From: Candidatus Bathyarchaeota archaeon | GTDB lineage: Archaea; Thermoproteota; Bathyarchaeia; 40CM-2-53-6 | Direction: 5' to 3' | DNA length: 64,000 nt | Assembly: GCA_005888745.1 (NCBI GenBank) | Contig: VBBS01000030.1 | Span: 140,175 to 204,174, forward strand | Shown here: positions 1,466 to 7,858 of the stretch, piece after piece | Numbering within the stretch: the stretch's first letter is position 1 | Layout of the letters: each line of letters begins with the position of its first letter | Position numbers and translations under genes: made by a program | Notes under the pieces: generated by a model | Seen by the model: only the letters and a program-made list of their open reading frames with translations | Told to the model about the DNA's origin: nothing | Database searches by the model: none

Positions 1466-1727
1466 CGTGGGACCACTTTTTCCAGATGACGGTGCCGTAA
1501 TGTTATGGGGTTGTTTGTAGGGATTCTCCTACCCGATCATTCCCGCAGAACCCCCTCTCCGCTTATGGAAAGGCCGCTGATTCGAAAAACGCATTTTACA
1601 TCTTGGACGTTCTAACGATTGAGCGCCTGAACAGCCAAACGATTGTCGGTTGATTCGTCCACAAACCGAACAACGGGCTTATCTACAGCCCGACATCAGG
1701 ATACTATACGGATACCCACGTGATGTA

Positions 1728-4700
1728 ATGTCGGACAAACGTTTTGTCCAAGGGTCCGGTATCAACGCTTTCAACGGAAATGAGCTGATAGTAAAGGGAG
1801 CGCTTGAGAGCAAGGTCGGCTTGATGGCCGGCTATCCTGGATCGCCTGTCGCAGAAGTTTTCACGATTCTAGAAGAGAACGCTGAGATTCTCAGAGAATG
1901 CGGCTTATGGGGAGAAATGACCAACGACGAGTCCCAAGGGGCTGCTGCGCTCAACGGCGCGTTGGATGTCGGCGTCAATGCGGTTGCTGTGATGAAGAGC
2001 GTCGGCCTCAACGTTGCTGCCGACCCTATCAATATCATCAATTATGCTGACAAGCTAGGCTTGAGCGGAAAGAGGGGCGGTGCCCTTGTTGTCTGCGGCG
2101 ACGACCCCCACGCTTCCAGTACGCAGGTTGCGGGTGATAGCCGCCAGCTTATGGAGCATCTCAAGATGGCGATTATCGAGCCGAGCACTCCGCAAGAGGT
2201 CAAGGACTGGATCGGAGAAGGACTCAGGCTCTCTCAGTACTCAAACCTGGTCGTAGGGTATCTCATTACCACTTACCTGGCCGAAGGCGGAGGTAGCGTT
2301 GTTCTATCAGAAAACCAGCCGTCGGAGATTACTTTCAAGAATCCGATTACCCTCGATATTTCAAAAGTTGATATCAAACGGAGAGTCAGTATCCCCCCGA
2401 ACACTTGGGATCTCGAGAAGGAGATTGTCAGAGATAGATTCCCGAAGGTCCATGAATATGTTCGCGATCATAAGCTCGACAAGATACTCTACGATGATGG
2501 TCGGAAGCACCGGATCGGATTCATCGCAGCCGGCATATCCTACAGCTATCTGGAACAGGCTCTCTGGGAACTCGGACTAGATGAACAATTTCCGATTCTG
2601 AAACCTGCCGTAACCTATCCACTTGAGCCCAACATCGTTGGCGAGTTATCAAAGAAAGCCGAGAATATTGTTGTTGTCGAAGAGAAGAGTCCAGCGATAG
2701 AGAACCAGGTCAAGACTATCCTCGATGACTTGGTCCAGGAAGGAAAACTCTCCAGCATGCCAAGGGTCTGGGGTAAATTCTTTCCTCAAGGCGATGGATT
2801 CCCGGAAGAGAGCGGCCTCACTCCTTCAAACCTAATCGAGAAAGTTGGAAACCTGCTCTTAGAGATCGGTGATCCTGCGGCCAAGATTGACCAGAAGAAG
2901 ATCCACAGCGAACTTGACCTGCTGGCTGAGATCAAAGCCTACGGGCTCCTGGTTCCTCCTCGCTCTCCAGGCTTCTGCGCCGGCTGCCCCCATCGGGAAA
3001 CCCTCAGCGCAGTTCATTCTCTAAGAGACACTCCTGAGCACAAAGACATCTTCGCGCACGGCGACATTGGATGCTATTCGATGTCTTTCCTTCCTCCCTT
3101 TGGTGAAATGCACAACCTAACGGCCATGGCGCTCGGTGGTGCTGCAGGAGCCGGGATGGACCCGTTCGTGACGAACAAGCAGTACGCGCTGATGGGCGAC
3201 TCCACGTTTTTCTGGAGAGGAATGACTGCAATCTCCAACTCGATCAAAGAAGGACAGGACATACTCTATCTCATTCTCGACAACAAGAACACTGCGATGA
3301 CAGGCCACCAACCTACACCGGAGTCAGGTCACAACCTGATGGGCGACAAGACAACCCCTCAGGACATCGAGAGCATCGTACGCGCTATGGGTCAGGGCCA
3401 GATCTACGTGAAAAAGATGCCCCCGTCCAACCGAGAGAAGTACATGAAAGAACTGGACAAGGTCTTCGAAAAACCCGGCGTCAAGGTCATAATAGCCGAC
3501 AAAGAGTGCGGCATCACATTTCACAAGAGAAAACGGTCAGAAAGAAACAGGATCATTGAGAGACAGGGTTTCATCAAGAAAGAGACATTCATCAACATAT
3601 CACAAGAAGTCTGCGAGAACTGCCGTGAGTGCACAAAGAACACTGGCTGCCCAGGACTAACGATAATCAACACTGACTATGGCGAGAAGATTGGGATTGA
3701 CCAGTCTATCTGCGTGTCCGACACCTATTGCACCAAGGTCATGGCTTGCCCTTCATTCGAGAAGGTAATAGTTACAAGAAACAGACCACCGAAATCACGA
3801 GTCAAGAAGATCTCGCTCGAAAATATTCCGCAGCCTGCTCCACACCGATTCAACGATACTTGGAAGATCTTCATCAGCGGCGTTGGCGGCATGGGGGTAG
3901 GTGTAATGTCGTCAGTTCTTGCTCGAGCCGGAACCAGAGAAGGATACCATGTCCGGTTCAACGATAAGAAAGGACTCGCAATCAGAAACGGAGCAGTTTC
4001 AGCTCACGTACTGTACTCGAATGGAAAAGCCAAGATCTCAACCATCGTCCCCAACGGCAAGGCGGATCTCTTGATGGGCGTCGACATGCTTGAAGCGGAG
4101 AGAAGTCTCGTATACGCGAGCCAAGTTCACACCACTGCAGTTGTCAACACCACGGTGGTCCCGACCATCCCGATGCTGGCAGGGATGATGAATTACCCTC
4201 CAGATGCGGAGCAGAATATTCGAAGATACACTAACTCCGACGAATATTTCGGTGGAAGACTTAGCGAGATCTCCGAACTGTATTTCGGAAGCAAGCTGTT
4301 CACCAACATGATTCTCTTGGGCGCGGCTTTCCAGAAAGGACTGATACCCGTCAGCGAACAGAACCTTATCGATGCAATTATGGAAACCGTACCTCCAAGC
4401 CAGCGAACTAGAAACATGGAAGCTCTACGCCTCGGACGAAAAATGGCCATCGAACCGGAGCTTCTGGAATTCAGGAACATTGTCGCCGATGACCGCATCC
4501 TTACTCTGTTTGGTGCGAAGGAAAGCTACCAGTCCGTTCTTGACATGAAGGCTAAGCAGCTCTCCCATTCCTACTGGATGTTCTGGCGTGGAAAGACGGT
4601 CGCAGACGAATACAGACGACTCGTTGAGAGCACCGTTGCCACGATGAGGCTCGATGAGGATACCAACAGAGCGATTGCCAGAAGAGTGTACGACCTCATA

Positions 4701-5345
4701 ATGTGGGGAGAACTTCCCTACGCCGAGAAGTACGTGGACAGGATCCTCGAGGTGTTCAGGAACGATAGGGAGGACAATGGCTACGCTGCAACGAAGACAG
4801 CAATGCTGGACCTTCACAAGGTGATGGCGATCAAGGATGAGATCTACACACCTCATCTGTTGACTGACGGTGAGAAACTGGACCGGGACAAGATACGGTA
4901 CAATGTTGACGATGAGAACGGTGACAAGATAATGTACGAGCACATCAACCGGCCCGAGTTTGAGGTCTTCGGCAAACAAGTAAGGTTCGACCTGCCGCAG
5001 TGGCTTGCGCATAACTGGCTGATGAGGATCTTCAAACACATGAAATGGACCAGAACCATCCTCGACAGCTGGGGATGGCACAAGAAAGAACGCGCCTTCC
5101 GCGACTGGTACAAAGACGACGTCATAGGATTCTACCTCAAGACGGCATCAACAAACTACGATCTTGCTCTCAGAGCGTTAAGGGTCATAAACGATCCATA
5201 CAGACCCAATGAATTCGCTGTCACAGGTTTCAGAGAGGTCATCTATCCAAAGATGGACAAGGCAAGAAGAGAATTCGAAGAACTCGTAGAGCCGGGTCAG
5301 CAACTCCCAGTAATGCCATTGATCACGGCCTCATCCGAAATGTAG
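1728..5345 (+). CDS. iorAB: Indolepyruvate:ferredoxin oxidoreductase, fused alpha+beta form (about 1200 aa). The ORF is open from 1650; the start is probably the Met at 1728.
   Basis: N-terminal GYPGSPV pyruvate-oxidoreductase-type domain, TPP-binding GDIGCY region, and two CxxCxxCxxxCP ferredoxin-like cysteine clusters (CENCRECTKNTGCP; CVSDTYCTKVMACP). The C-terminal half resembles the IorB-like domain of the fused bacterial-type IOR family. Confidence 0.75.
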   Translation: MSDKRFVQGSGINAFNGNELIVKGALESKVGLMAGYPGSPVAEVFTILEENAEILRECGLWGEMTNDESQGAAALNGALDVGVNAVAVMKSVGLNVAADPINIINYADKLGLSGKRGGALVVCGDDPHASSTQVAGDSRQLMEHLKMAIIEPSTPQEVKDWIGEGLRLSQYSNLVVGYLITTYLAEGGGSVVLSENQPSEITFKNPITLDISKVDIKRRVSIPPNTWDLEKEIVRDRFPKVHEYVRDHKLDKILYDDGRKHRIGFIAAGISYSYLEQALWELGLDEQFPILKPAVTYPLEPNIVGELSKKAENIVVVEEKSPAIENQVKTILDDLVQEGKLSSMPRVWGKFFPQGDGFPEESGLTPSNLIEKVGNLLLEIGDPAAKIDQKKIHSELDLLAEIKAYGLLVPPRSPGFCAGCPHRETLSAVHSLRDTPEHKDIFAHGDIGCYSMSFLPPFGEMHNLTAMALGGAAGAGMDPFVTNKQYALMGDSTFFWRGMTAISNSIKEGQDILYLILDNKNTAMTGHQPTPESGHNLMGDKTTPQDIESIVRAMGQGQIYVKKMPPSNREKYMKELDKVFEKPGVKVIIADKECGITFHKRKRSERNRIIERQGFIKKETFINISQEVCENCRECTKNTGCPGLTIINTDYGEKIGIDQSICVSDTYCTKVMACPSFEKVIVTRNRPPKSRVKKISLENIPQPAPHRFNDTWKIFISGVGGMGVGVMSSVLARAGTREGYHVRFNDKKGLAIRNGAVSAHVLYSNGKAKISTIVPNGKADLLMGVDMLEAERSLVYASQVHTTAVVNTTVVPTIPMLAGMMNYPPDAEQNIRRYTNSDEYFGGRLSEISELYFGSKLFTNMILLGAAFQKGLIPVSEQNLIDAIMETVPPSQRTRNMEALRLGRKMAIEPELLEFRNIVADDRILTLFGAKESYQSVLDMKAKQLSHSYWMFWRGKTVADEYRRLVESTVATMRLDEDTNRAIARRVYDLIMWGELPYAEKYVDRILEVFRNDREDNGYAATKTAMLDLHKVMAIKDEIYTPHLLTDGEKLDRDKIRYNVDDENGDKIMYEHINRPEFEVFGKQVRFDLPQWLAHNWLMRIFKHMKWTRTILDSWGWHKKERAFRDWYKDDVIGFYLKTASTNYDLALRALRVINDPYRPNEFAVTGFREVIYPKMDKARREFEELVEPGQQLPVMPLITASSEM

Positions 5346-5485: not shown

Positions 5486-6061
5486 TTGAGCTCAGAGATC
5501 CATCCTATCAATCCTCTGGCAGAAGTCTTAGCAAGGCGGCAGTACTCCCAAGAGTCTCTTTACAGGGCGGCTTTCAAGGACACCCGGTTCTCTTCCGGTT
5601 TCGGAATGTACCCGCCTACTTCTCCCAAGCAGCCAGGGACTGGAGGCTCGATAGCTTGGATCTTGGTCAAGTTCGGGTTTGTTGGGGGGTTGGGAATCTT
5701 CCTTAATCAGTCCGTACTGTTCGCATTGACGACATTCTTTGGCGTATACTATCTGATCGGTGCAGTCCTCAGCAGTCAGGCAGCTGTACTCGTCAATTTT
5801 GCATTGAACAACTTTCTCGTATTCAGGTCAAGAGAAAGCGCCGGAGGACTAATCCGGAAAATCTTCCTCTTTAACGCAGTTTCGTCATCAGACCTACTCC
5901 TAAGAATTCCCCTACTCTTCGGTCTGACGAGTGCACTGGGTATTGGGTACCTTTGGTCCAACCTTGCGAGCATCTTCTTGACGTTCGGGGCTAGGTTTCT
6001 TGTGAGTGAGAAGAAGATTTGGGCAAAACACGTTGCACCAATTACCCCAGCGTCGCGCTAG
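5486..6061 (+). CDS. GtrA-family small membrane protein (flippase-associated 4-TM). The N-terminal 40 aa may be an over-extension.
   Basis: Four predicted TM helices with a GtrA-like motif: LFALTTFFGVYYLIGAVLSSQAAVLVNFALNNFLVFRS. Confidence 0.5.
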   Translation: MSSEIHPINPLAEVLARRQYSQESLYRAAFKDTRFSSGFGMYPPTSPKQPGTGGSIAWILVKFGFVGGLGIFLNQSVLFALTTFFGVYYLIGAVLSSQAAVLVNFALNNFLVFRSRESAGGLIRKIFLFNAVSSSDLLLRIPLLFGLTSALGIGYLWSNLASIFLTFGARFLVSEKKIWAKHVAPITPASR

Positions 6062-6076
6062 ATCACCGATGATATC

Positions 6077-6805
6077 TTAGTAGTGCCTTACAAAGGTCTC
6101 AACTGGATGGACAAGCTCTAGCGATGGCTGGAGGTCCAATTGGAATAGCTCTCCAGACGGGGTCTTAGAGAATCCGTCCTCGCCTTTTCGAACTAGGTCG
6201 TCAACGATGGAGACTCGCCTCCTGATGTAGTCACTCTCATCAGCGGCCGGTAAGGGGCCGAAGACTTGCGGCGCGGCAAGTCGGACCGCGGCGTACATTG
6301 ACCATGCTAGATCCCGTATCTCCCACTGTGCGTCGGGAGCGCAGCGGAGATTGAAGAAGTGGATGAGCTGGCGCGGGCTCATGCTCATTACAATGTTCGT
6401 GGTTGCTGCATTGGGCCTGAGGTATCGGCTGTCTTCCGCTTTTATGCCTTTGGCAACGAGTCCTTCCTCGGCTTGACGCGTCAAGTCCATTACGTCTGTG
6501 AAGTTTAGGTCTATCTTGTGTCCCTGTATCTCAACTGGGACCTTGAGGTCATGGGGTATTCCGGGTGGTTTCAAGTATCCATAGCTTCGTGTGACGCGCA
6601 CATAACGTTGTGATTGCTGACTGAAGGAGGCGATTCTATGTCTTACAATCTGATGACTGGCTGCTCGGCTTATTCCCTGAAGGTCAAACGTGAGGCTCCC
6701 ATGCCGGAGCATGCTCTCTCCTCCCATCTTCACTCCGGCTTTCTCCAAGTTTCTGGTTAGCTCGGGATAGTTGGTGTAGCTGAACAGGATTGCTTTGCTT
6801 GCCAA
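6077..6805 (-). CDS. thyX: FAD-dependent thymidylate synthase ThyX, catalytic core with all signature motifs.
   Basis: RHRIASFSQQSQRY (the ThyX RHR...SxxQxSxRY signature) and a downstream NLRCAPDAQWEIR motif. Alignable to Thermotoga and Mycobacterium ThyX from the HG..EH region onward. Confidence 0.8.
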   Translation of the reverse strand: MASKAILFSYTNYPELTRNLEKAGVKMGGESMLRHGSLTFDLQGISRAASHQIVRHRIASFSQQSQRYVRVTRSYGYLKPPGIPHDLKVPVEIQGHKIDLNFTDVMDLTRQAEEGLVAKGIKAEDSRYLRPNAATTNIVMSMSPRQLIHFFNLRCAPDAQWEIRDLAWSMYAAVRLAAPQVFGPLPAADESDYIRRRVSIVDDLVRKGEDGFSKTPSGELFQLDLQPSLELVHPVETFVRHY

Positions 6806-6813
6806 TTCTCAAC

Positions 6814-7272
6814 CTAACTTCTTGTTGTCGATATCGCGAGTGCGGAGGCGATGATCGGGGCGGCTTCATTCAAGGTCCCGACAAGTTCTTTCGTTAATGG
6901 TAGGTCGCTGGGGCCTCGTGCTAGCTCGACTAGTACTCGTAGGTTTGTTGTGATGAGCCATCGCTGTTCGTCGATCTGGCTTGTCTCGAAAAACTTGGAT
7001 GATTCCATGAGGAAGAGGATCTCCTTTTCGTCAGCCTCCACTAGCCAGGTGATGCTGTTGTGCTCGAGAATATCGTAATGTCCCAGCTCAAGGGCACGCT
7101 TCAACAGTCCACCTATTCGCTCGGCGTCGAAGATTTTTTCCCCATCCAGCACCTTGTCTTGTGAGGTGTGCGTGAACAGTTCATATCCCGGATGGGGAGA
7201 ATAGCATGATCGCATGGCTGCGGCGCATACTCTTTCAAGGTCAGGCTCGTAGCCTACAAGGCGAACACGCAT
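6814..7272 (-). CDS. ThyX-like degenerate paralog. It has the ThyX N-terminal strand, the HxxxEH region and a C-terminal helix region, but lacks the RHR/SQRY catalytic motif. It lies 8 nt upstream of thyX in a different frame.
   Basis: MRVRLVGYEPDLERVCAAAMRSCYS aligns with the ThyX N-terminus. GHYDILEHNSITWLVEA aligns with GHFSVLEHASVSFYITG. The RHR motif is absent. Confidence 0.5.
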   Translation of the reverse strand: MRVRLVGYEPDLERVCAAAMRSCYSPHPGYELFTHTSQDKVLDGEKIFDAERIGGLLKRALELGHYDILEHNSITWLVEADEKEILFLMESSKFFETSQIDEQRWLITTNLRVLVELARGPSDLPLTKELVGTLNEAAPIIASALAISTTRS

Positions 7273-7444
7273 GACGAGAAATCCTTCTCAAGAAGAGTAG
7301 ATGTTCCGCCCCAATAAAAGAGCTACCGCCTCATTCTTGTAATCCGGATTATTCTACGAAGCAGAAATGTGAGCTAACGCGTGTCTTTTGTGACTGAATA
7401 GTGGTTTTGGAAGAGACAGTATCCTTAGCTACGCGCCTTGTCCA

Positions 7445-7858
7445 TTGCGAGAATGGACGATTAGGGGAGACGGTAGGTCAATGGCCGAAGATGAAGGGTC
7501 AGACAGCGAAGCAAGACAGGAGCGTGAACGGGACCCTCCGGATGATGCACGGATAGAACCCTTCTTGGACATGCGGGATCCTACTTTTCGCCGAATTCTT
7601 CGATCCGCCACAAGCAAGTTCAACCAGATGATATGCCCCTTGATGGCATCTGTTTGTGTGCGGGACCTATGCATGTTCTGGAACGACCACTCAAAATCGT
7701 GCTATATTGTTGATACGCTGAAGACGAACCTCTATCACACTGTCTGTCCGAAGTGCGGGTCCACCAACATCGAACTATCCGCTAGGGAGCAGCGTTCTGG
7801 GAAGGCGAAATTGTATCGGTGCGACACCTGCGGCAACGAATGGGGAGCAGTTCACTAA
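7445..7858 (+). CDS. Small protein with a C-terminal TFIIS/TFS-type zinc ribbon. The start is uncertain and the N-terminal acidic/Arg-rich part may not be translated.
   Basis: CPKCGSTNIELSAREQRSGKAKLYRCDTCGNEW resembles the CxxC...QTRSADE...CxxCxxxW consensus. Confidence 0.35.
   Translation: MREWTIRGDGRSMAEDEGSDSEARQERERDPPDDARIEPFLDMRDPTFRRILRSATSKFNQMICPLMASVCVRDLCMFWNDHSKSCYIVDTLKTNLYHTVCPKCGSTNIELSAREQRSGKAKLYRCDTCGNEWGAVH

Follow-up and report, generated by a model that had tools for sequence, protein, structure and literature searches.

Two ThyX-family genes on one archaeal contig

The sequence studied is a 64-kb stretch of DNA (the window) from a Candidatus Bathyarchaeota archaeon, a soil archaeon, in which a pair of neighboring open reading frames (ORFs) at 6077..7272 encodes relatives of ThyX, the flavin-dependent thymidylate synthase. 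Read directly, both ORFs lie where the original prediction had placed them, on the minus strand, in different frames and with an 8-nt junction between them:

6814..7272, minus strand: ORF1, a non-catalytic "mini-ThyX" (ATG start, 152 aa) with the ThyX fold, a degenerate catalytic motif and the central helical domain deleted
6806..6813, minus strand: spacer of 8 nt, from the TAG stop of ORF1 (6814-6816) to the TTG of ORF2 (6803-6805), read directly
6077..6805, minus strand: ORF2, the putative catalytic ThyX subunit (TTG start, 242 aa)

The frame of ORF2 is offset by 2 relative to that of ORF1. As a spacer of 8 nt is too small for a promoter, the two ORFs are probably co-transcribed and closely coupled. 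The start codon of ORF2 is TTG in the window versus ATG in most close relatives (GAATTGGC versus GAATGGC, one base apart); the ORF2 homolog at locus L023 (L and P numbers denote surveyed loci and proteins) shares the TTG start, and the conserved peptide ASKAILFSY supports TTG as the start of ORF2.

Both proteins were compared with the family models Thy1 from Pfam (PF02511, cut-off 24.8 bits) and TIGR02170 (cut-off 87.9 bits). ORF2 scored 155.4 bits against Thy1 (E 2e-45, profile positions 41-191) and 127.6 bits against TIGR02170, exceeding its cut-off, and also matched solved ThyX structures in the PDB by sequence, down to E 2.7e-17; on these matches it is a bona fide member of the ThyX family. 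ORF1 scored 32.7 bits against Thy1 (E 8e-8), above the cut-off and over profile positions 1-64 of 191 only, and 26.3 bits against TIGR02170, under the cut-off, as a partial, divergent member of the same family would. The motifs on which the remaining analysis turns are the following, with residues of Thermotoga maritima ThyX used for numbering:

7183..7236, minus strand: equivalent of helix H1 and the folate loop (ORF1 residues 13-30, ERVCAAAMRSCYSPHPGY), a segment that ORF2 lacks
7060..7083, minus strand: helix H3 (ORF1 residues 64-71, GHYDILEH), with the equivalents of His53, Glu58 and His59
6958..7008, minus strand: degenerate region replacing RHR..S....S.RY (ORF1 residues 89-105, MESSKFFETSQIDEQRW)
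6916..6960, minus strand: last core strand and helix (ORF1 residues 105-119, WLITTNLRVLVELAR), with N110 and R112 as proposed equivalents of Asn163 and Arg165
6776..6799, minus strand: N-terminal beta-strand of ORF2 itself (residues 3-10, SKAILFSY)
6701..6724, minus strand: degenerate helix H3 (ORF2 residues 28-35, GGESMLRH), with His53 replaced by Gly, Glu58 by Arg, and His59 kept
6602..6643, minus strand: ThyX signature RHR-x7-S-x-R-Y (ORF2 residues 55-68, RHRIASFSQQSQRY), with the equivalents of Ser88, Arg90 and Tyr91
6341..6436, minus strand: ORF2 residues 124-155, comprising EDSRYLRP (Arg147 equivalent), TNIVMSMSPRQ (Asn163 replaced by Ser, Arg165 kept) and FFNLRC (Arg174 equivalent)

ORF1 is collinear with single-chain ThyX through strand 1, helix H1 (ERVCAAAMRSCYSPH), a lineage-specific insertion, GHYDILEH and the strand ITWLVE; past ITWLVE it degenerates, skips the active-site loop and the central helical domain, and resumes at WLITTNLRVLVELAR. 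In a phmmer search of PDB sequences, ORF1 residues 54-116 aligned weakly to residues 58-119 of Mycobacterium tuberculosis ThyX, with GHYDILEH on GHFSVLEH and MESSKFFETSQIDEQRW on RHRHFSYSQLSQRY, so that the catalytic residues are replaced and ORF1 is, as had been proposed, without an RHR/SQRY motif. The RHR is conserved at this place in no mini, as we call proteins of the ORF1 type, in the alignments of minis. Residues 13-30 map by hhalign onto the N-terminal region of single-chain ThyX, and among them residues 20-27, 29 and 30 are invariant in a 14-sequence alignment of minis from the window clade. An AlphaFold2 model of ORF1, built from a 40-sequence alignment, is a four-stranded sheet with flanking helices (predicted local distance difference test score, pLDDT, 90.9; predicted template modeling score, pTM, 0.83), and the top 50 Foldseek matches to it in the PDB all have the ThyX fold, being chains of ThyX or of PolB, a ThyX-like methylase; their probability is 1.0 and their query-normalized TM-scores are 0.56-0.67.

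ORF2 differs from the form in which it was originally described. It had been said to lack simply the first roughly 40 residues of a canonical ThyX; its own N-terminal strand, SKAILFSY, is nearly identical to the aligned SKVILFSY of single-chain relatives and is a strand (residues 155-162) in the AlphaFold2 model of the concatenated ORFs, and the gap of about 40 residues is internal, removing helix H1, the folate loop and the lineage-specific insertion after strand 1. This segment is missing from all catalytic subunits and from the C-terminal domains of all fused proteins in the alignment. ORF2 had also been said to contain every catalytic motif. It retains RHR, the equivalents of Ser88, Arg90, Tyr91, Arg147 and Arg174, and the C-terminal extension of TACK-type enzymes, and has Gly, Arg and Ser at the positions of His53, Glu58 and Asn163. 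Wherever the signature motif is uninterrupted in another window-clade locus, its sequence is again RHRIASFSQQSQRY.

In three close relatives (L009, L011 and L023) the ORF2 homolog is split in frame by a 352-aa LAGLIDADG intein (L023 3468-5264; Pfam LAGLIDADG_3, E 4e-9), the first residue of which is Cys and which ends in ...VWCGN; it lies between SFSQQ and SQRY, directly before the Ser88 equivalent. ORF2 of the window is free of an intein. A single-chain TACK-type ThyX (P0136, 633 aa) has a different intein between SRAM and THQLVRHR, upstream of the RHR, which indicates at least two intein insertion sites in ThyX here.

Conservation of the gene pair and its fused and single-chain relatives

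A genome scan with one genome per species gave 28 loci, of which the 21 close ones are from soil Bathyarchaeota metagenome-assembled genomes (MAGs). The same two-ORF arrangement, which the original prediction had advised looking for in related genomes, was found as ORF1 followed by ORF2 in 22 related Bathyarchaeia loci, and tblastn searches of all loci placed ORF2 directly downstream of ORF1 in every close locus long enough to show it. A survey of 23 loci found every relative frame (0, 1 and 2) and junctions ranging between an overlap of 4 nt and a gap of +11 nt; the overlap is ATGA or TTGA in L002, L003, L020, L017 and L019, with gaps of 1-11 nt in other loci, and the ORF1 stop codon is TAG, TGA or TAA depending on the lineage. 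Same-strand overlaps and very short gaps permit coupling by termination-reinitiation and are enriched among the genes for subunits of heteromeric complexes (PMC10666635). The gene order seen here, on one strand, with an overlap or very short gap and kept across lineages, is of that kind, with L004 and L005 as exceptions. In these two loci (4397-4484), ORF1 and ORF2 are in the same frame with one TGA between them, no ATG, GTG or TTG precedes ...TTSKIILFSY, and the first start codon is 85 nt downstream, so the junction could involve readthrough of the stop codon, initiation at a non-canonical codon or a catalytic subunit shortened at its N-terminus. At a further locus (L008 843-1568; VBAX01000034, MAG BA_3) the ORF2 homolog has an in-frame stop, DLAW*MYAAV, for which pseudogenization, a mixture of strains or an error in sequencing are possible causes. 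A second copy of the pair is present in this MAG (L006, VBAX01000052) and is cut off by the end of its contig.

Homologs of ORF1 form 151 protein clusters, nearly all of them stand-alone proteins of about 151-152 aa with 65-94% identity, and the named members come from Bathyarchaeia MAGs. Among homologs 65-92% identical, 55 alignment columns are invariant, and the ratio of nonsynonymous to synonymous substitution rates (dN/dS; Nei-Gojobori) versus close relatives is 0.04-0.09 for ORF1 and 0.03-0.05 for ORF2. ORF1 is a selected, folded, miniaturized ThyX-fold protein. The suggestion that the locus arose by a duplication plus frameshift, or is an assembly error, does not hold against the 151 clusters of minis, the 22 paired loci, the variable junctions and the purifying selection.

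A profile of the ORF1 homologs was then searched against 1.84 billion representatives. This search resulted in more divergent stand-alone minis (134-147 aa) and in fused proteins (300-382 aa) whose N-terminal domain is a mini and whose C-terminal domain is catalytic, examples being P0127, P0209 (from a Conexivisphaera sp. MAG), P0302, P0146, P0151 and P0153. In three more divergent types of mini (L034-L036 and L038), each mini overlaps a short Thy1 gene located 3' of it, and a fifth divergent locus (L037), in the closed 2.30-Mb Bathyarchaeota genome CP070784.1, has the same arrangement of mini and Thy1 gene; the overlaps in four divergent pairs are 11-25 nt. A profile of the divergent minis matched 841 further proteins, the named ones of which are from Bathyarchaeota/Bathyarchaeia and mostly annotated as hypothetical. 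Two of the divergent catalytic subunits (L034 3416-4042 and L036 3381-4022) have a Cys-rich tail, GPYCFQxGxCxEGRFxCG, instead of the TACK-type C-terminal extension, and a Cys-Cys pair directly after the Arg174 equivalent (LRCC), features that may form a metal or iron-sulfur site.

The distant loci L027-L033, from Nitrososphaeria and two other Bathyarchaeota, carry a single thyX of 277-287 aa with 37-57% identity to ORF1. A standard single thyX in relatives had been put forward as a sign that the pair is an assembly error; such a gene does exist in these distant relatives and does not in the close ones.

Complementary residue loss and a proposed two-subunit enzyme

Each ThyX active site is built by three subunits (PMC6514825), which agrees with the statement in the original prediction that these sites are composed of several subunits. 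In the M. tuberculosis enzyme, the flavin adenine dinucleotide (FAD) of subunit A is bound by the RHR (95-97) of A, and Arg199 of A binds deoxyuridine monophosphate (dUMP); Ser71 and Arg190 of subunit B contact the FAD of subunit A; and a loop of subunit C with Ser105, Arg107 and Tyr108 holds dUMP (PMC6514825). In the T. maritima enzyme, His53, on helix H3 of "monomer-3", stacks on the reduced flavin or the folate pterin, and Ser30 of helix H1 together with the folate loop 27-37 gates the folate site (PMC11940539). In the alignments, the His53 equivalent is followed two residues later by Ser71, Arg190 corresponds to the Arg of the Asn-x-Arg motif, and Arg199 corresponds to Arg174.

The single-chain ThyX proteins of L027-L033, T. 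maritima ThyX, the minis, the catalytic partners and the fusions were aligned, and the residues were counted by architecture. Among the single-chain relatives, both the His53..Glu58-His59 motif and Asn-x-Arg are present in 98/98. In the C-terminal domains of the fused proteins each of the two is present in 0/13; the N-terminal domains of these proteins have H....EH in 13/13, with Asn-x-Arg not reliably scored there. Among the split catalytic subunits, the His53 position is free to vary (G, L, N, Q, T, K, H, R, P or S), Arg has replaced Glu58 in nearly all, and, other than in L014 and L035, Ser, Gly, Thr or Asp stands in place of Asn163. W105 of the minis is conserved in 155/156, and the counts for the mini residues with named counterparts are as follows:

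His65 (T. maritima His53): 143/156 minis
Glu70 (T. maritima Glu58): 152/156 minis
His71 (T. maritima His59): 156/156 minis
Asn110 (T. maritima Asn163): 153/156 minis
Arg112 (T. maritima Arg165): 156/156 minis
Residue 67 (M. tuberculosis Ser71): Ser in 116/156 minis

As far as these alignments reach, the losses are complementary, in that the positions relaxed or deleted in the catalytic chains are nearly invariant in the minis. When the residue conservation is set beside the published three-subunit sites, the minis appear to conserve the subunit-B set and nothing else, and their catalytic partners the A and C sets, with the B set relaxed or deleted. Neither ORF1 nor ORF2 alone holds the catalytic and the trans-acting residues on one chain, and the window does not encode two Thy1-like domains in one polypeptide, as a stop codon, a spacer and a new frame lie between them.

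We therefore favor, with a probability of about 0.68, the reading that ORF1 and ORF2, translated separately, combine as subunits in a single flavin-dependent thymidylate synthase; an alpha2-beta2 tetramer with two composite active sites is, as its architecture, an even call. The second alternative of the original prediction, a two-polypeptide ThyX containing a dead paralog, thus finds support in conserved linkage, natural fusions and complementary residue loss, all of them comparative evidence. ORF2 would have the catalytic role, with the RHR motif for FAD and dUMP, the loop Ser-x-Arg-Tyr and the Arg147 and Arg174 equivalents. ORF1 would be a catalytically dead paralog that donates the helix-H3 His, Glu58/His59 and the arginine of Asn-x-Arg for the FAD of its neighbor, and would also supply helix H1 and the folate loop, which probably act in trans from the same subunit as His53. 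In a D2 tetramer, subunits A and B exchange the B-type contacts and A and C the loop contacts; with ORF2 as A and C and ORF1 as B and D, the result would be a pseudo-D2 tetramer in which the two ORF2 chains supply RHR/Arg174 and the active-site loop to each other and the two ORF1 chains fill the remaining positions, giving two complete sites, not four. The B-type residues of ORF2 would then have no site to serve, which would account for their decay. The dead paralog had been thought to contribute a missing N-terminal strand; ORF2 has its own strand and ORF1 is modeled as a complete four-stranded mini-domain, and it is more likely that ORF1 occupies whole subunit positions in the tetramer. Natural fusions support a physical association by the Rosetta-stone argument, and the conserved overlaps and short gaps fit translationally coupled subunits of a complex.

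The two ORFs were also modeled as one concatenated chain with AlphaFold2, using an alignment of natural fusions and minis. The model has a pLDDT of 82.3 and a pTM of 0.69, with only the active-site loop (214-230) below 50. Judged by these two scores, the model is mildly supportive, the pTM exceeding the expectation for the larger domain alone. No two-domain ThyX was among the PDB matches to the concatenated model (Foldseek; query-normalized TM-score about 0.25).

Several points weigh against two subunits of one enzyme. The pTM of 0.69 for the concatenated model is only suggestive. The assignment of N110 and R112 of ORF1 to Asn163 and Arg165 draws on a weak profile match of the mini C-terminal half, in which NLR maps to N163-A-R165 (hhalign, E 0.054), on secondary structure, the Asn-x-Arg being at a strand-helix junction in the AlphaFold2 model, and on invariance; the hhalign alignment of the ORF1 profile to single-chain ThyX is confined to the N-terminal 82 columns. 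ORF2-type subunits are, judging from the alignment, not stripped of every trans-acting element, as ORF2 of the window clade retains the Arg165 equivalent, L013 has His at the His53 position and L014 keeps Asn163. Finally, no thyA or second thyX was found by tblastn within the 64-kb window, which says little about the genome.

The same retained residues bear on the one serious rival, that an ORF2 homotetramer alone is a working enzyme that tolerates the loss of helix H1 and His53, with ORF1 as an accessory or regulatory protein (for example a chaperone, a carrier of flavin or folate, or a regulator or inhibitor acting in mixed oligomers). ORF2 has kept every dUMP and FAD motif of the catalytic type, with the Arg165 equivalent in the window clade and a His at the His53 position in L013; the T. 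maritima variants H53A and H53D had the stability needed for crystallization; and the complex of ORF1 with ORF2 is a prediction from comparative evidence. We nevertheless consider this rival unlikely, as the positions at which ORF2 is relaxed show near-invariance in ORF1 and full invariance in 98/98 single-chain enzymes, the mini and catalytic parts are fused as one chain in several lineages, and tight linkage or overlap has been kept across very divergent lineages.

Far less probable is a single fused gene of about 390 aa, broken by a sequencing or assembly error or joined by programmed frameshifting or readthrough. Although fused versions occur in other lineages and the ORFs of L004 and L005 share a frame, with one TGA and no nearby start codon between them, independent assemblies all show a stop and then a start codon, the lineages differ in relative frame (0, 1 or 2), the junction sequence is unconserved with no shared slippery site, and one divergent pair is in a closed genome. 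A programmed frameshift was rejected on the variation of relative frame and junction sequence between lineages. Decoding of the TAG as pyrrolysine was likewise rejected, as the next stop follows soon after the TAG and relatives end ORF1 with TGA or TAA. Least probable of all is that a tandem duplication left ORF1 behind as a decaying pseudogene fragment that is still open, for although ORF1 is without the catalytic motif and the central helical domain, its dN/dS shows it to be constrained like ORF2, and the 55 invariant columns, the 841 mini-family matches beyond the window clade and the confident, compact AlphaFold2 fold are not those of a remnant.

Evolution, genomic context and comparison with known systems

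The nearest sequence relatives of the pair are single-chain TACK-type ThyX proteins from Nitrososphaeria and some Bathyarchaeota (L027-L033 and P0123). The N-terminal half of ORF1 is 51-63% identical to the N-terminal half of these enzymes, including MRSCYSPH and the insertion after it, versus only 32-44% to other minis; for the C-terminal half of ORF1, similarity is seen to other minis alone (31-51% identity) and to no single-chain ThyX. ORF2 shares about 50% identity with the remainder of the single-chain TACK ThyX, C-terminal extension included. In a neighbor-joining tree of the catalytic domain, the subunits of the window clade nest within the single-chain TACK enzymes (86% bootstrap), the Conexivisphaera-type fusions nest in another single-chain subgroup (83%), and other Bathyarchaeia catalytic subunits branch deeper. 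The mosaic similarity of ORF1 and the interleaving of split and fused with single-chain forms suggest repeated interconversion of the three architectures. One of two readings of this origin is that duplication and reduction took place several times, with convergence on one mini architecture; the other is that there was a single, ancient mini and that recombination between homologous strands (ITW and LTF) gave rise to single-chain forms again. The wider picture, of an obligate hetero-oligomeric ThyX in much of Bathyarchaeia, fused in Conexivisphaera-like Nitrososphaeria, with a pseudo-subunit acting in trans in a two-site tetramer and with single-chain, fused and split forms interconverted more than once, has about an even chance of holding in full.

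Upstream of ORF1 lies one further feature, also read directly:

7273..7330, minus strand: upstream region of ORF1, with a TATA-like TTTTATT at 7313-7319 and the purine-rich GAGAAGGA at 7282-7289

This region is tentatively taken as the archaeal promoter and ribosome-binding region of a two-gene operon. A GtrA-family gene (5486-6061) is convergent to ORF2 and conserved in most loci. Beyond it, the window encodes a 1231-aa protein like indolepyruvate/2-oxoacid:ferredoxin oxidoreductase (1650-5345) as one ORF, as does L001; in L004 (5961-8399) this oxidoreductase-like gene is two overlapping genes of 648 and 559 aa, a second fused-or-split case nearby. On the other side, divergent from the thyX pair, is a gene for a zinc-ribbon protein of 137-147 aa with weak Pfam matches (7445-7858 on the plus strand of the window; L004 3383-3826), which may be a conserved neighbor or a regulator.

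ThyX is essential, is a target for drugs and serves as a model flavoenzyme. With the catalytic and trans-donor roles on different polypeptides, each would be independently mutable, a natural dissection experiment in which what His53, the folate loop and Arg165 contribute to the binding of folate and the position of the flavin would be separable from the same chain's own site, and half-of-sites behavior would be open to direct study. The findings also bear on annotation, as hundreds of minis are labeled "hypothetical protein" or mislabeled thymidylate synthase, and the catalytic partner resembles a truncated gene. The pair offers a clear microbial case of duplication, complementary degeneration and a probable obligate heteromer, in which fused, split and single-chain forms can be compared.

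The two-gene ThyX system is real and conserved, and is most likely, from its sequence features, a heterotetramer of a catalytic subunit and a pseudo-subunit. A split, heteromeric or duplicated ThyX, or a ThyX from Bathyarchaeota or Conexivisphaera, is not described in the full-text literature searched, the coverage of which is incomplete; the sole related item is the remark that the ThyX of Chloroflexi "contains a domain duplication" and "has not been characterized" (PMC3224940). This remark shows that duplicated architectures had been noted earlier (PMC3224940).

Among the known forms of the enzyme, the canonical ThyX of T. maritima (TM0449) and M. tuberculosis shares with ORF2 the fold, RHR..S....S.RY and the dUMP arginines, and with ORF1 the same fold in reduced form. 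To our knowledge, all characterized ThyX enzymes consist of four identical chains with four sites. The chemistry of the ORF1/ORF2 pair would be that of ThyX, the conversion of dUMP to dTMP with NAD(P)H, FAD and methylene folate; the division of its residue sets between two chains and its predicted assembly would place the pair outside the single-chain, homotetrameric definition. Canonical sites are shared by three subunits, a property that the split system appears to exploit; in the split pair, unlike the canonical enzyme, Asn163, the His and Glu of helix H3, and helix H1 with the folate loop belong to a second chain that is non-catalytic and are absent from the catalytic one, and the prediction is two sites per tetramer versus the canonical four. 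The single-chain TACK-type ThyX has both residue sets on one chain, unlike the pair in the window, and the fused mini-catalytic ThyX has the same domain order and complementary residue pattern in one polypeptide versus two genes in the window. Outside the family, the closest parallel in principle is provided by prozyme-type heteromers of an enzyme and a dead paralog, such as the S-adenosylmethionine decarboxylase/prozyme and the deoxyhypusine synthase of trypanosomatids. These arise by duplication and complementary degeneration, after which the dead paralog is necessary for the weakened catalytic one, since the sites lie at interfaces. The families, organisms and chemistry are unrelated to those of the ThyX pair, and the analogy is one of principle only.

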